64,000 nt of DNA from Escherichia coli (lineage in GTDB: Bacteria; Pseudomonadota; Gammaproteobacteria; Enterobacterales; Enterobacteriaceae): assembly GCF_050920415.1 (NCBI RefSeq), contig NZ_CP169309.1; one strand, 5' to 3'. A program made the position numbers and the translations under genes. Below are positions 4,941 through 12,641 of the stretch, piece after piece; position 1 is the stretch's first letter; each line of letters opens with the position of its first letter. Below the pieces are notes generated by a model. It saw only the letters and a program-made list of their open reading frames with translations. It had not been told where the DNA came from and searched no databases.

Positions 4941-5582
4941 TTGTATCAGGATAAAATTCTTGTCCGCCAGCTCGGTCTTCAGCCTTACGAGCCAATCTCC
5001 CAGGCTATGCATGAATTCACCGATACCCGCGATGAAAGTACCCTTGATGAAATCTGGCTGGTCGAGCACTATCCGGTATTCACCCAAGGGCAGGCAGGAA
5101 AAGCGGAGCACATTTTAATGCCGGGCGATATTCCGGTGATCCAAAGCGATCGCGGTGGGCAGGTGACTTATCACGGGCCGGGGCAACAGGTGATGTATGT
5201 GTTGCTTAACCTGAAACGCCGTAAACTCGGTGTGCGTGAACTGGTGACCTTGCTCGAGCAAACAGTGGTGAATACCCTGGCTGAACTGGGTATAGAAGCA
5301 CATCCTCGGGCTGACGCGCCTGGTGTCTATGTCGGGGAAAAGAAAATTTGCTCACTGGGTTTACGTATTCGACGCGGTTGTTCATTCCACGGTCTGGCAT
5401 TAAACGTCAATATGGATCTTTCACCATTTTTACGTATTAATCCTTGTGGGTATGCCGGAATGGAAATGGCTAAAATATCACAATGGAGACCCGAAGCGAC
5501 GACTAATAATATTGCACCACGTTTACTGGAAAATATTTTAGCGCTACTAAACAATCCTGACTTCGAATATATTACCGCTTAA
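4941..5582 (+). CDS. lipB: Octanoyltransferase LipB (TTG start)
   Basis: 213-aa ORF starting at TTG 4941; sequence and synteny match LipB. Confidence 0.92.
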
Positions 5583-5841
5583 TTGCATACATCAATGGCC
5601 CAATTTACACTGGGTCATTACTCATAATACCTGCTAATGCTTTACATCTCCTTCGCGTTTGTATATTTTCTTTATCACTTGCAGAAATGCGATGCTACGC
5701 CTTGCTCCGTAACTCACCCCATTGATTAACTTATTGAAATAGTTGATTATGGTGAGCAAAAGCGTTCCGTTCCAATTAGACATAAGATTATTGTAATTTT
5801 TTTAAATATTATTTTTCCATGAATAAAATTGGAGTAAGTGC

Positions 5842-6795
5842 GTGGATAGTAATAATCAAATTGAAACCTGTTTAAGCAGAAAGTCGTCAGAAGGTAAACC
5901 ACAAATATTTACAACCTTACGAAATATTGATCTTAACCTTCTGACTATTTTTGAAGCTGTGTATGTGCATAAAGGGATCGTTAATGCAGCGAAAGTGCTT
6001 AATCTGACACCCTCAGCAATCAGTCAGTCTATTCAGAAACTGCGCGTTATATTCCCTGACCCATTGTTTATTCGCAAAGGCCAGGGCGTCACTCCTACTG
6101 CATTTGCAATGCATTTGCATGAGTATATCAGTCAGGGCCTTGAATCCATTCTCGGCGCGCTGGATATCGAAGGAACCTATGATAAGCAACGAACGATAAC
6201 TATCGCGACCACCCCCTCGGTCGGAGCCCTGGTCCTTCCAGTCATCTATCGGGCGATTAAAACTCATTATCCGCAGCTTTTACTGCGCAACCCCCCTATC
6301 AGCGACGCGGAAAGCCAACTCAGTCAGTTTCAAACCGATCTCATCATTGATAACATGTTCTGCACCAATCGTACGGTACAACATCATGTTCTGTTCACCG
6401 ACAATATGGTGTTAATTTGCCGCGAGGGAAATTCGCTACTCTCCTTAGAAGATGACAGAGAGACTATCGAAAACGCTGCACATGTACTCCTGTTACCGGA
6501 AGGGCAAAATTTCAGCGGTTTGCGGCAGAGAGTTCAAGAGATGTTTCCGGACCGACAAATCAGTTTTACCAGCTACAACATTCTCACAATCGCTGCACTG
6601 GTTGCCAACAGTGACATGTTAGCGATTATTCCCAGCCGTTTTTATAATCTGTTTAGCCGTTGCTGGCCGCTGGAAAAGCTGCCTTTTCCGTCCTTAAATG
6701 AGGAGCAAATTGATTTCTCTATCCACTACAACAAATTCAGCCTGCGCGATCCTATCCTGCATGGGGTTATAGATGTTATCCGTAATGCATTTTGA
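5842..6795 (+). CDS. ybeF: LysR-family transcriptional regulator YbeF
   Basis: 317-aa ORF (GTG start) with N-terminal LysR-type HTH; AT-rich coding sequence; synteny between lipB and lipA. Confidence 0.9.
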   Translation: MDSNNQIETCLSRKSSEGKPQIFTTLRNIDLNLLTIFEAVYVHKGIVNAAKVLNLTPSAISQSIQKLRVIFPDPLFIRKGQGVTPTAFAMHLHEYISQGLESILGALDIEGTYDKQRTITIATTPSVGALVLPVIYRAIKTHYPQLLLRNPPISDAESQLSQFQTDLIIDNMFCTNRTVQHHVLFTDNMVLICREGNSLLSLEDDRETIENAAHVLLLPEGQNFSGLRQRVQEMFPDRQISFTSYNILTIAALVANSDMLAIIPSRFYNLFSRCWPLEKLPFPSLNEEQIDFSIHYNKFSLRDPILHGVIDVIRNAF

Positions 6796-7003
6796 GAAAG
6801 CGTTGTTACAGCCAGTTCACAGCGCAGCACGATAAAATGGCACAATCCAACAACAATTTTACATTTTCGCGACCGCTTTGGCTGCTTTCAAGCGCGTTTC
6901 AATGATATACTGCCAGTCGTTAATTCAAAAATAGTTGATAATTACAACAATCTATTGAATTGAAACGCTTTCCTTCGTAATTCGCAACTGGAACACGCAC
7001 GCT

Positions 7004-7969
7004 ATGAGTAAACCCATTGTGATGGAACGCGGTGTTAAATACCGCGATGCCGATAAGATGGCCCTTATCCCGGTTAAAAACGTGGCAACAGAGCGCGAAG
7101 CCCTGCTGCGCAAGCCGGAATGGATGAAAATCAAGCTTCCAGCGGACTCTACACGTATCCAGGGCATCAAAGCCGCAATGCGCAAAAATGGCCTGCATTC
7201 TGTCTGCGAGGAAGCCTCCTGCCCTAACCTGGCGGAATGCTTCAACCATGGCACAGCAACGTTTATGATCCTCGGCGCTATTTGTACCCGCCGTTGTCCG
7301 TTCTGTGACGTTGCCCACGGTCGCCCGGTAGCTCCAGATGCCAATGAACCAGTGAAACTGGCGCAGACCATTGCCGATATGGCGCTGCGTTATGTGGTTA
7401 TCACCTCCGTTGACCGTGATGACCTGCGCGATGGCGGTGCCCAGCACTTTGCGGATTGCATTACTGCCATTCGGGAAAAAAGCCCGCAAATCAAAATTGA
7501 AACTCTGGTGCCGGATTTCCGCGGTCGTATGGATCGTGCTCTGGATATTCTGACCGCCACACCACCAGATGTGTTCAACCATAACCTGGAAAACGTACCG
7601 CGTATTTACCGTCAGGTACGGCCTGGTGCAGATTACAACTGGTCGCTGAAGCTGCTGGAACGCTTTAAAGAAGCGCATCCGGAAATCCCGACCAAGTCTG
7701 GTCTGATGGTGGGTCTGGGTGAAACCAATGAAGAAATTATTGAGGTAATGCGCGACCTGCGCCGTCATGGTGTGACGATGCTAACGCTGGGGCAATATTT
7801 GCAGCCAAGCCGCCATCACCTGCCGGTTCAACGTTACGTTAGCCCGGATGAGTTCGACGAAATGAAAGCCGAAGCGCTGGCGATGGGCTTTACCCATGCT
7901 GCATGCGGTCCGTTTGTCCGCTCGTCTTACCACGCCGATTTGCAGGCGAAAGGGATGGAAGTTAAGTAA
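7004..7969 (+). CDS. lipA: Lipoyl synthase LipA (radical SAM)
   Basis: 321-aa ORF with CxxxCxxC radical-SAM motif (CTRRCPFC) plus the N-terminal Cys cluster. Confidence 0.96.
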
Positions 7970-8000
7970 TCCTGTAATAATTACTTACATCTGTCTGATA

Positions 8001-8030
8001 AAAAACCCGCTGTTTGAAGCGGGTTTTTTG
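8001..8030. terminator. Bidirectional rho-independent terminator between convergent lipA and tatE
   Basis: GC stem aacccgc-tgtttga-agcgggtt flanked by A-run upstream and T-run downstream. Confidence 0.75.
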
Positions 8031-8069
8031 TATCGAACAAGATATTGAGGGAGCGTCCTGCTCGCCACG

Positions 8070-8273
8070 TCACTCTTTATGAGAGAGCTTTTCAGCCTGA
8101 AGATCAACGTCTGCGCCTTTTTTCGCCGCAGCATCGTCATCATTCATCGCCTTCTTGAACCCTTTAATGGCCGCTCCAAGGTCTCCGCCCAGCGTACGTA
8201 ACTTCTTAGTGCCAAACAGCAGAACGACCAGCGCCGCAACTACCAGCAGTTTGGTAATACTAATCTCACCCAT
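8070..8273 (-). CDS. tatE: Twin-arginine translocase subunit TatE
   Basis: 67-aa ORF with N-terminal TM helix ([26 protein letters not shown]), TatA/E family. Confidence 0.93.
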
Positions 8274-8401
8274 AGATACCTTCTTGACATATAACCGGCA
8301 ACAGAACGCGCCTTAAAAACCAGAGAATATTAACGGTCATTCGACGCGCGCACACAATAGCAATCTGTAACAAGGTGAATCAAGCACCGAGTAAAAAAAC
8401 A

Positions 8402-9196
8402 TCATAATAATTGTGGCGGCGCAAAACGACGGTTGTTTAATACTGGAAGTTGCGCGCGCACCTGACGCACTCGTTCAGGCGTCACTTCCGCCATAATAAG
8501 GGCAGGCATTTCTGCCGCCGCCGCAATGGTGACACCAAAGGGATCTATAATCCGACTTTGCCCGATATTTTTGTTCCCGCACTCCCCCGCCGCCACCATA
8601 TAACTGGTAGTATCCAGCGCACGAGCGGCAAGCAACGTTGACCAGTGATGCTCTTTGAGCGGTCCGCGAACCCAGGCCGCGGGAAGTACCAGGATTTCAG
8701 CTCCCTGTAATGCCTGTGCCAGCGCCAGCTCTGGAAAGCGTAAGTCATAACAGGTCATCAGACCAACCTTCATCCCTTCGACCTCCAGTAACGAAGCGAT
8801 TTCGTTACCTGCATCAACATGGCGTGACTCCTGAATGGCAAATGCATCATAGAGATGCAGTTTGGCATAACGGGCGACAATGTTTCCCGCTTGTATGGCC
8901 ACCAGCATATTCCATGCGCGCCCCGGCGTTGAAGGAACATGAATCGTCAGTATTGTCGTCATCATGTTACGTTTACTTTCTCGCCGTAAACGTCCGAGGA
9001 ATTCGCCTTCCAGCAGCTGTGCTGATTTAACCGATAGATCTGCATCATGATCATCACGCGCCAACAATGCTTCCGGCAGGACAAACAGCGAAACGTCGTT
9101 TTCCGCCGCCTGCGCCATCAACGAGGCACAAATCTCAGCGTTCTTTTCCCACACAGATGTAACAGCAAACTGTCCTGCGGCAACCAGCATTGCCAC
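8402..9196 (-). CDS. ybeM: Nitrilase-superfamily C-N hydrolase YbeM, intact reading frame
   Basis: 264-aa uninterrupted ORF; carbon-nitrogen hydrolase fold recognised by sequence; position between tatE and crcB. Confidence 0.85.
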
Positions 9197-9285
9197 CTCC
9201 TACTGTCAGAGTCGTAAAATTCGCCAACGGCGATTATTCGGCGTTACACTTATCACTCATACAAATCAAATAGCAGGATTTTGCA

Positions 9286-9669
9286 GTGTTACAACTTCTT
9301 TTAGCAGTTTTTATTGGCGGTGGTACGGGAAGCGTGGCGAGATGGCTGTTAAGTATGCGATTTAACCCGCTGCATCAGGCGATTCCGTTGGGGACGCTGG
9401 CTGCAAACCTGATTGGGGCATTCATCATAGGAATGGGATTCGCCTGGTTTAGCAGGATGACGAACATTGATCCAGTGTGGAAAGTATTAATCACCACCGG
9501 ATTTTGTGGCGGTCTAACAACCTTCTCAACATTTTCGGCAGAAGTGGTGTTTTTGTTACAAGAGGGCCGCTTTGGCTGGGCATTACTGAACGTTTTCGTC
9601 AACCTTCTGGGGTCTTTTGCCATGACCGCACTGGCTTTCTGGCTGTTTTCGGCCTCAACCGCAAACTAA
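9286..9669 (+). CDS. crcB: Fluoride ion channel CrcB/FluC (GTG start)
   Basis: 127-aa four-TM ORF; matches CrcB; synteny. Confidence 0.92.
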
Positions 9670-9673
9670 AGAC

Positions 9674-9704
9674 CAAAAAAAACCCGCTGATTAAGCGGGT
9701 TTTG
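9674..9704. terminator. Bidirectional rho-independent terminator between convergent crcB and cspE
   Basis: aaaaaaaacccgct-gatt-aagcgggtttt hairpin with flanking A/T runs. Confidence 0.75.
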
Positions 9705-9722
9705 AATTCTTGCTGACGTATC

Positions 9723-9932
9723 TTACAGAGCGATTACGTTTGCAGCAGAAGGGCCTTTGGCACCGTTAGTGATTTCGAACTCTACGCGCTGACCTTCAGC
9801 AAGAGTTTTAAAACCATTAGTCTGGATTGCAGAGAAGTGTACGAACACGTCTTTGCTGCCGTCTTCCGGAGTAATGAAACCGAATCCTTTGGACTCATTA
9901 AACCACTTAACGTTACCTTTAATCTTAGACAT
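9723..9932 (-). CDS. cspE: Cold-shock-like protein CspE
   Basis: 69-aa [25 protein letters not shown]..; ORF-track N-terminal extension trimmed to the cold-shock-domain start. Confidence 0.96.
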
Positions 9933-10106
9933 CAAAATTACCTTTACATGAAAAATAGACACAAATGCTGTGTCGGTTACCAGTACACCAATTGTGGTAC
10001 GCTTTGTCCAGTGCAACTTTACTAAAAAGTGATAAAAGTCGCGTTATTTTTGATGTTAATTATTTTACTCATTGATTTTAAAGAAGTTACTAAAATTTCA
10101 TTTGTC

Positions 10107-10667
10107 TCAAAACTGAAAGCGCATCCAGGCAAAGTACACATTGCCATTGTTATAGGTACCCGGAATGTAGGTCATCTGAAAAGTCACTGGACCATAACCC
10201 ACAGAGGCCAATGGCAGTAGAACCGGGAGAGGGATGTAATTCCAGTTATCGCGTGCCGTTACGCCAGCGGTGAATCCCAGTCCTAAATGAAAATTTTCAT
10301 CCGCCAGCGGTCGCCAGGTACTTTCCCATCCGTATCCGGCAATCGGTTCCCATTTGTTCCACGAGTCCTTAAATGCCATGGCATACAGGCCATGCCAGTT
10401 TCCTTTTTCATCCCAACGCGACTGACCAAAACCGCCACCCCACGGTCGCTCGTTATAGCGATCGGTTTTTTCTTTGTCGTAAGCGAAACGAGCATGCCAG
10501 GTGATGGCAGGAATATATAAATCATAATGTTCAGGCTGTTGCCAGGTTTGTGTAATATTTTCTCCAAACGTTGTCATCCACTCATCTGCGTTAGCTAAAA
10601 CTTTACCAACGCTGATTAACTGAATAAAAACAAAGGAAAATATAGAGACATATTTACTCACGTTCAT
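10107..10667 (-). CDS. pagP: Lipid A palmitoyltransferase PagP (outer-membrane beta-barrel)
   Basis: 186-aa ORF starting MNVSKYV.. with signal peptide; sequence matches PagP. Confidence 0.93.
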
Positions 10668-11255
10668 TTGTGACCATAAAACATTTATCAAAAATCTACT
10701 ATTAGCATAGCAAAACTACAATTAACATAACCTTAATAGACCCAACATGAAGAATAATCTGAATAGCTGTTCTATTTATTTCCGCTTGTTCAAGATAAAT
10801 ATTTCCGCGCATCTATTAAAGATGATGCGTCGTTTTCTGCGATGGGAATAGTCATAAAAGAAAAACCAAGTCTTTTTTGATGACAAAATACAATCAAGAA
10901 AAAATTACTTTATTTTTTAATAAGATACAAAAAACTTCTTAACGAAGAATATATTATATATCGTCAACCTATGCTCATGGTAGATTATTTTTTGAGCGCA
11001 CGCCCGCGGCTAACACCATTGCAATTAACAAATTTGCATCAATCCACCATCAATTTACACACATTATTATGTGATAATTGCCAACCGCTAAATATGCGTT
11101 TTGTTATCTATGTATAAAAACAGCAACTTCAATGTCTTAATGGCAGTTTTTCTTGATTTTAATCAGCATTCACCGCCAATTTATTGGGCATATTTTTTCC
11201 TTAAGTTTTAGGAATTTTTTATTATTTACTTTGGGGCCTGGAGACAGGAAAAATT

Positions 11256-12641
11256 ATGCTGACATTCATTGAACTCCTTATTGGGGTTGTGGTTATTGTG
11301 GGTGTAGCTCGCTACATCATTAAAGGGTATTCCGCCACTGGCGTGTTATTTGTCGGTGGCCTGTTATTGCTGATTATTAGTGCCATTATGGGGCACAAAG
11401 TGTTACCGTCCAGCCAGGCTTCAACAGGCTACAGCGCCACGGATATCGTTGAATACGTTAAAATATTGCTAATGAGCCGCGGCGGCGACCTCGGCATGAT
11501 GATTATGATGCTGTGTGGCTTTGCCGCTTACATGACCCATATCGGCGCGAATGATATGGTGGTCAAGCTGGCGTCAAAACCATTGCAGTATATTAACTCC
11601 CCTTACCTGTTGATGATTGCCGCCTATTTTGTCGCCTGTCTGATGTCTCTGGCCGTCTCTTCCGCAACCGGTCTGGGTGTTTTGCTGATGGCAACCCTGT
11701 TTCCGGTGATGGTGAACGTTGGTATCAGCCGTGGTGCAGCTGCTGCTATTTGTGCCTCCCCGGCGGCGATTATTCTCGCACCGACTTCAGGGGATGTGGT
11801 GCTGGCGGCGCAGGCTTCCGAAATGTCGCTGATTGATTTCGCCTTCAAAACGACGCTGCCTATCTCAATTGCTGCAATTATCGGCATGGCGATCGCCCAC
11901 TTCTTCTGGCAACGTTATCTGGATAAAAAAGAGCACATCTCTCATGAAATGTTAGATGTCAGCGAAATCACCACCACTGCTCCTGCGTTTTATGCCATTT
12001 TGCCGTTCACGCCGATCATCGGAGTGCTGATTTTTGACGGCAAATGGGGGCCGCAATTACACATCATCACTATTCTGGTGATTTGTATGCTGATTGCCTC
12101 CATTCTGGAGTTCATCCGCAGCTTTAATACCCAGAAAGTGTTCTCGGGCCTGGAAGTGGCTTATCGCGGGATGGCAGATGCGTTTGCTAACGTGGTGATG
12201 CTGCTGGTTGCCGCTGGGGTATTCGCTCAGGGGCTTAGCACCATCGGCTTTATTCAAAGTCTGATTTCTATCGCCACTTCGTTTGGTTCGGCGAGTATCA
12301 TCCTGATGCTGGTATTGGTGATCCTGACAATGCTGGCGGCAGTCACGACCGGTTCAGGCAATGCGCCGTTTTATGCGTTTGTTGAGATGATCCCGAAACT
12401 GGCGCACTCTTCCGGCATTAACCCGGCGTATTTGACTATCCCAATGCTGCAGGCGTCAAACCTCGGTCGTACCCTGTCACCCGTTTCTGGCGTAGTCGTT
12501 GCGGTTGCCGGGATGGCGAAAATCTCACCATTTGAAGTCGTAAAACGCACCTCGGTGCCGGTGCTTGTTGGGCTGGTGATTGTTATCGTTGCTACAGAGC
12601 TGATGGTGCCAGGAACGGCAGCCGCGGTCACAGGCAAGTAA
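11256..12641 (+). CDS. dcuC: Anaerobic C4-dicarboxylate transporter DcuC
   Basis: 461-aa polytopic membrane ORF; sequence and synteny next to dpiA. Confidence 0.93.
   Translation: MLTFIELLIGVVVIVGVARYIIKGYSATGVLFVGGLLLLIISAIMGHKVLPSSQASTGYSATDIVEYVKILLMSRGGDLGMMIMMLCGFAAYMTHIGANDMVVKLASKPLQYINSPYLLMIAAYFVACLMSLAVSSATGLGVLLMATLFPVMVNVGISRGAAAAICASPAAIILAPTSGDVVLAAQASEMSLIDFAFKTTLPISIAAIIGMAIAHFFWQRYLDKKEHISHEMLDVSEITTTAPAFYAILPFTPIIGVLIFDGKWGPQLHIITILVICMLIASILEFIRSFNTQKVFSGLEVAYRGMADAFANVVMLLVAAGVFAQGLSTIGFIQSLISIATSFGSASIILMLVLVILTMLAAVTTGSGNAPFYAFVEMIPKLAHSSGINPAYLTIPMLQASNLGRTLSPVSGVVVAVAGMAKISPFEVVKRTSVPVLVGLVIVIVATELMVPGTAAAVTGK

Follow-up and report, generated by a model that had tools for sequence, protein, structure and literature searches.

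An intact ybeM gene in Escherichia coli, a probably functional deaminated glutathione amidase with a divergent 3′ tract

Introduction

In the annotation of Escherichia coli K-12 MG1655 (NC_000913.3), ybeM (b4581) appears as a 788-bp pseudogene, and RefSeq marks the copies of K-12 derivatives as 'frameshifted'. A stretch of E. coli DNA of 64,000 nt (the window) carries ybeM with an open reading frame. This raises the question whether the allele still encodes a working enzyme, and whether its intact state says anything about the lineage of the strain. The original prediction, made from the sequence alone, had answered both parts in the affirmative: it considered the amidase probably functional and took the intact frame as support for a non-K-12 lineage. 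The identity of the gene, its family, the reaction assigned to it and its pseudogene status in K-12 are already contained in public annotation.

Results

On the minus strand, positions 8402–9196 hold an uninterrupted open reading frame of 795 nt with 264 sense codons followed by TGA, which agrees with the extent and the codon count of the original prediction. Only about 0.02–0.04 frames of this length are expected by chance in the six frames of 64 kb. Since the frame is too long for chance and the protein strongly matches the family models PF00795 (E=3e-38) and NF033621 (E=2e-134), it represents a real gene. The strand and the start codon can be added to the earlier description. The count of 264 codons begins at a GTG at 9196, the first G of which is also the last base of the Shine-Dalgarno sequence AGGAGG (9196–9201, minus strand), located 5 nt upstream of an ATG. 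In strain MFDS1022581, whose sequence is 100% identical to the window from 5200 to 12300, RefSeq places the start at this ATG (9188–9190), two codons downstream of the GTG (789-bp coding sequence, WP_001354846.1, NZ_CP169399.1). The ATG and a GGAGG-type Shine-Dalgarno core are kept in E. albertii and Citrobacter, which, however, have no start codon in place of the GTG. Enterobacter and Klebsiella also kept the ATG and lack the GTG. Because the GTG overlaps the Shine-Dalgarno sequence, and because the ATG and the Shine-Dalgarno sequence but not the GTG are conserved in Enterobacteriaceae, the start of YbeM is assigned to the ATG at 9190, with a predicted product of 262 aa (8402–9190 including TGA, minus strand). 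A start at the GTG, yielding 264 aa, was rejected, as both the RefSeq annotation and the conservation within Enterobacteriaceae favour the ATG. The two extra codons of the maximal frame, GTG GCA (9191–9196, minus strand), are probably untranslated.

Just upstream of the Shine-Dalgarno sequence, at about 9202–9204, the window has an insertion of 3 nt compared to K-12, ATCC 25922 and E. albertii (gacaGTAggagg versus gacaggagg). Equal match lengths of 1001 bases suggest that strains GPEC606 and A24 share this insertion. Furthermore, an alternative frame of 56 codons lies within ybeM at 8770–8940 on the minus strand, and its product starts with MFLQRRGAH. The same peptide is the product of a 29-bp ybeM fragment in a UTI89 library whose overexpression led to filamentation; the authors regard this as an overexpression effect and not as an evolved function (PMC6206680).

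The assignment of the gene to ybeM and of its product to the carbon-nitrogen hydrolases of the nitrilase superfamily, as originally proposed, was borne out by profile searches. The Pfam model PF00795 (CN_hydrolase) matched the protein with 132 bits (cut-off 23.2) over residues 5–247 of the 264-aa frame, corresponding to profile positions 2–255 of 256. The NCBIfam model NF033621, 'deaminated glutathione amidase', gave 446.8 bits, above its curated cut-off of 355, and covered model positions 2–260 of 260. With the same model other intact orthologues from E. coli, E. albertii and Citrobacter score 448–452 bits, and the window protein lies within 6 bits of them. The gene order lipA, tatE, ybeM, crcB, cspE, pagP is that of K-12 and of other strains, and the crcB-ybeM-tatE-lipA synteny is conserved. 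Nearly all complete E. coli genomes (5,424 of 5,426) contain ybeM, annotated as 'deaminated glutathione amidase', and full-length orthologues of 262 aa are present in E. albertii (92% amino acid identity), Citrobacter (79–84%), Enterobacter, Klebsiella, Salmonella and others. The E. coli proteins WP_001354846.1 and WP_001305561.1 share the crcB-ybeM-tatE-lipA locus and the length of 262 aa with the window protein. The first of them, from MFDS1022581, is identical to it, and the identity to the main cluster of E. coli YbeM proteins is about 98%. Judged from these sequence comparisons the gene is ybeM, coding for a bacterial nitrilase-superfamily C–N hydrolase that is orthologous to Nit1 of eukaryotes.

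Among solved structures, the best relatives are of the Nit1 type, namely NitFhit of Caenorhabditis elegans (1EMS, E=1e-26), the K. lactis protein 7ELF and yeast Nit2 (4H5U). Homology to these structures is full-length at the level of the superfamily (E=1e-26 to 1e-25). With 97 bits the query-to-structure match is distant, and the window protein is shorter and stands alone, without the Fhit fusion. An alpha-beta-beta-alpha sandwich fold is predicted from the homology to solved members. Counted through the alignment, Glu40, Lys110 and Cys147 of the window protein correspond to Glu54, Lys127 and Cys169 of 1EMS, which we take to be the catalytic triad positions of NitFhit. Thus, the Glu-Lys-Cys triad for which the original prediction had proposed a check is present. 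Its codons lie on the minus strand at 9071–9073 (Glu40, the putative general base), 8861–8863 (Lys110) and 8750–8752 (Cys147, the putative nucleophile). Glu121 (codon 8828–8830, minus strand) aligns with Glu143 of 1EMS, presumably the second active-site glutamate typical of the nitrilase superfamily, and is a candidate for this role.

Family membership points to the following reaction. Deaminated glutathione (dGSH) is the 2-oxo analogue of glutathione (GSH) that arises when transaminases act on GSH by mistake. Cys147, activated by Glu40, would attack the amide carbonyl of dGSH, and Lys110 together with Glu121 would stabilise the tetrahedral intermediate. Cysteinylglycine would then depart, and hydrolysis of the thioester would free 2-oxoglutarate, so that the overall reaction would be one of metabolite repair. 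Peracchi et al. 2017 (PNAS 114:E3233) reportedly describe Nit1 homologues of E. coli and of other glutathione-producing bacteria as excellent dGSH amidases. For Nit1 itself, three reviews, each with reference to Peracchi et al. 2017, describe a metabolite-repair step in which dGSH arising from non-specific GSH transamination is hydrolysed, yielding 2-oxoglutarate and Cys-Gly (PMC10452834; PMC9913352; PMC5714238).

The nitrilase superfamily is functionally diverse, and the window protein also matched the models for N-carbamoylputrescine amidase, YafV-type amidohydrolase and nitrilase. An active amidase with a substrate other than dGSH is conceivable on these grounds, either an omega-amidase for 2-oxoglutaramate or 2-oxosuccinamate like YafV or Nit2, or an enzyme for another small amide. 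Nevertheless, these matches were weaker and far below the respective cut-offs, and NF033621 was the sole NCBIfam model to pass its curated cut-off. The YafV-type model NF007757 gave 63.3 bits (cut-off 249), and the model for the Yersinia-type deaminated glutathione amidase, NF043013, gave 79.6 bits (cut-off 500). Moreover, the closest solved relatives are of the Nit1 type and not omega-amidases of the Nit2 type. YafV and the mammalian omega-amidase Nit2 have the superfamily, the catalytic chemistry and the role in metabolite repair in common with YbeM, but YafV belongs to another family, is encoded at another locus and acts on 2-oxoglutaramate rather than dGSH. Indeed, a table in PMC8711792 that cites Peracchi 2017 assigns the 2-oxoglutaramate (omega-)amidase role in E. 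coli to YafV. We regard a substrate other than dGSH as very improbable.

The statement that ybeM of K-12 MG1655 is a pseudogene, made in the original prediction, proved right, and the K-12 gene is not equally intact. Pairwise alignment with K-12 ybeM, as had been suggested, located the lesion: one G is missing at gene nt 200, in codon Arg67 and in the context GGAC[G]TTTAC. This G is present in the window at 8991 (minus strand; the K-12 site is L003:3231), and the K-12-type deletion is thus absent from this allele. The site is not a homopolymer run. The K-12 frame encodes 66 native residues and, after the shift, nine codons (LYGEKVNVT) followed by two stop codons. As the truncated product loses Lys110 and Cys147, strains that carry the lesion would be without the enzyme. 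The lesion is young, since the downstream part is still open in another frame and its sequence is nearly identical. Over the whole gene the window and K-12 are 95% identical, and the first 103 nt of the maximal frame do not differ. K-12 ybeM has the additional substitutions V33A and V37A.

An 80-mer of K-12 centred on the deletion had exact matches in 859 of 5,424 complete E. coli genomes. The corresponding intact 80-mer of the window matched 3,533 genomes exactly, and most of the remaining genomes differ from it by single-nucleotide polymorphisms. Wild carriers of the lesion include isolates of human stool (Mozambique), bovine mastitis (France) and chicken stool (China), and all three copies are annotated as 'frameshifted' with 788 bp. 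These three share one ybeM sequence, from which MG1655 departs at 2 nt, both non-synonymous (V33A and V37A, which the wild carriers lack). The wild carriers thus indicate that the lesion is a natural polymorphism of a lineage related to K-12 and not a laboratory artefact, and the non-repetitive sequence context argues for a single origin. The crcB protein allele WP_000939747.1 is common to K-12 and the three wild carriers. The allele WP_000939738.1 was found in the four strains with intact ybeM that were checked besides MFDS1022581, and also in strains F765 and JNE21-003. An 80-mer across the K-12-specific substitutions matched 365 genomes exactly; if all of these are among the 859, the lesion occurs in roughly 490 genomes without the K-12 laboratory haplotype.

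With respect to lineage the original prediction holds, with a caveat. The window does represent a non-K-12 lineage, as it is 2.8% divergent from K-12 over 7 kb, but the intact frame is only a weak marker for this. Most genomes have the intact gene, and wild relatives of K-12 carry the lesion as well. Accordingly, an intact ybeM excludes only a subclade related to K-12.

Other lesions were found in further strains. Strain F765, whose ybeM carries a 'frameshifted' annotation, has a separate frameshift by loss of one A at gene nt 49–50 (L010:253). The 80-mer with this lesion was exact in 37 complete genomes, mostly of O157:H7. The affected AA dinucleotide (codon Asn17) lies at 9141–9142 on the minus strand of the window and is intact, with both A's present in GAAAAGAACGC. 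In JNE21-003 an IS21-family element, ISEc62 with istA and istB, disrupts ybeM close to its 3′ end (L013:3836-5930). Hence at least three independent events inactivated ybeM in E. coli: the K-12-type deletion, the O157:H7-associated deletion and the insertion of an IS21-family element. These losses, at least three in number, imply that ybeM is dispensable under some conditions. A gene of strain UTME-9 (NZ_CP157110.1, L012) with a match of 93.9%, annotated as 'nitrilase-related carbon-nitrogen hydrolase', was considered as a divergent allele and rejected. Every gene of this region is marked as frameshifted, which indicates an error-ridden assembly despite its RefSeq status as 'complete'.

Comparison of alleles revealed an uneven distribution of differences within the window gene. 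The ybeM genes of K-12, GPEC606, A24, cattle strain 147 and ATCC 25922 differ pairwise by at most 20 nt, whereas 33–43 nt separate the window from each of these alleles. All 29 substitutions private to the window fall into gene nt 240–777 (8414–8951, minus strand) and none into nt 1–239; under uniform scatter such a distribution has a probability of (550/789)^29, about 3e-5. The first 239 nt are 0.4% divergent from GPEC606 and A24 and 16.3% from E. albertii. The last 550 nt are 5.8–6.5% divergent from the sampled E. coli alleles, which differ from each other by at most 2.0%, and 15.5% from E. albertii. Scaled to the distance to E. albertii, the 3′ segment of ybeM has a ratio of 0.41, compared to 0.12–0.20 in neighbouring genes. 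Only one complete genome of 5,426 carries the same allele; the match that follows reaches 96.5%. Closer relatives exist for the flanks of ybeM, with 99.4% and 98.2%. In contrast to this rarity among complete genomes, the exact YbeM protein has index entries in 193 blocks of public assemblies, among them GCA_015290205.1, which has an identical neighbourhood of 6.8 kb.

According to these distances, the 3′ tract of about 540 bp was probably acquired by a short recombination import from a divergent Escherichia lineage. The divergence of the donor would be about threefold that of the deepest split between sampled E. coli alleles, but the donor would be far closer than E. albertii or E. fergusonii. 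A degenerate back-translated pattern was applied to genome contigs in search of the donor. E. albertii was the only other Escherichia among the matches listed, which were mostly Actinomycetota. A 27-mer containing five private variants had no match in metagenome contigs, and a 23-mer matched one metagenome contig, but this contig belongs to E. albertii, with a difference of 0.7% to the type strain. The protein search was clustered at 90% identity, with all E. coli-like YbeM alleles in one cluster; E. fergusonii, at 82% identity in this search, was excluded as donor. An import of the whole region including ybeF as one large piece was rejected, because the ratios of ybeF (0.20), lipA (0.13) and tatE (0.20) represent the background.

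Several features of the neighbouring genes were also noted. The LysR-type regulator gene ybeF (about 5840–6795) is among the fastest-evolving neighbours: the window copy is 4.9% divergent from that of K-12, which differs from E. albertii by 24.7%. With a ratio of 0.20 its divergence is, on the sequence distances, that of a fast-evolving gene. The lipA-ybeF intergenic region shows an unusually high ratio for window versus K-12, although this is based on small numbers (8 versus 10 differences). The cspE gene (about 9723–9932, 210 nt) is 100% identical in nucleotide sequence, even at synonymous sites, in the window, K-12 and E. albertii, while the genes around it are 7–25% divergent from E. albertii. 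The cspE-crcB spacer of 53 nt is the same in the window and K-12.

Compared to nine other alleles, the window ybeM shows dS values of 0.17–0.22 and dN values of 0.007–0.012, resulting in dN/dS of 0.04–0.07 (Nei-Gojobori). Only 4–7 amino acid changes occur among the 33–43 nucleotide changes. Together with the normal score for the family model (446.8 bits), this purifying selection suggests that YbeM of the window is probably functional, as originally proposed. The residues private to the allele are L99I, P133S, C196S and S226A. Ala226 is also the state of E. albertii and Citrobacter. At positions 133 and 196, the other Enterobacteriaceae sampled, Escherichia and Citrobacter among them, have kept Pro and Cys, as has NitFhit.

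An intact frame could nevertheless hide an impaired or silent enzyme, with P133S and C196S brought in by the divergent 3′ tract or with expression lost, which would make the allele a cryptic pseudogene close to decay. Such a state would be consistent with the two private substitutions at positions that do not otherwise vary among Escherichia, Citrobacter and NitFhit, and with the repeated inactivation of ybeM within E. coli. It would also fit a simple and in itself uninformative sigma-70 scan of positions 8000–9400, in which no promoter-like site was found. However, dN/dS is low against all of the other alleles, the NF033621 score is close to the 448–452 bits of other intact orthologues, and the triad as well as the second glutamate are intact. 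In addition, the solved K. lactis Nit1 orthologue 7ELF has Ser at both positions aligned to 133 and 196, and the recurrence of the exact protein in public assemblies also speaks against a decaying allele. An impaired or unexpressed YbeM is thus rather hard to reconcile with the data and appears highly unlikely, and we retain the reading of YbeM as a probably functional amidase.

Discussion

Considering the frame, the family models and the aligned active site together, it is very likely that positions 8402–9190 encode an intact YbeM of the expressed type that acts as a thiol amidase for dGSH, that the K-12-type lesion removes this enzyme, and that the state of the window is the ancestral one. 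In uropathogenic E. coli, ybeM is annotated as an intact gene as well (UTI89_C0629; PMC6206680). In strain CFT073 the gene is transcribed and responds to nitric oxide (NO), its expression falling to 0.30-fold when NO stress is applied. Moreover, ChIP in CFT073 gave an NsrR peak 345 bp into ybeM, and a previous ChIP-chip study of K-12 had likewise found the gene to be an NsrR target (PMC5320621). The NsrR and NO data hint at a link between nitrosative stress and ybeM as a glutathione-repair gene.

The probable import of the 3′ two-thirds of the allele from an unsampled Escherichia through homologous recombination and the inactivation events, at least three in number, could be considered together. 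Repair of dGSH would then be conditionally dispensable in E. coli, repeatedly lost and occasionally replaced by recombination. We put this forward as a tentative view, for which the chances are slightly below even.

Beyond the correct annotation of ybeM the importance of these findings is small. Nevertheless, K-12 and about one sixth of the complete E. coli genomes would be without the YbeM repair enzyme, a count that is inflated by laboratory derivatives. K-12 would thus offer a natural null background for studies on damage by deaminated glutathione, and results on glutathione side products that were obtained with K-12 may not carry over to wild strains.
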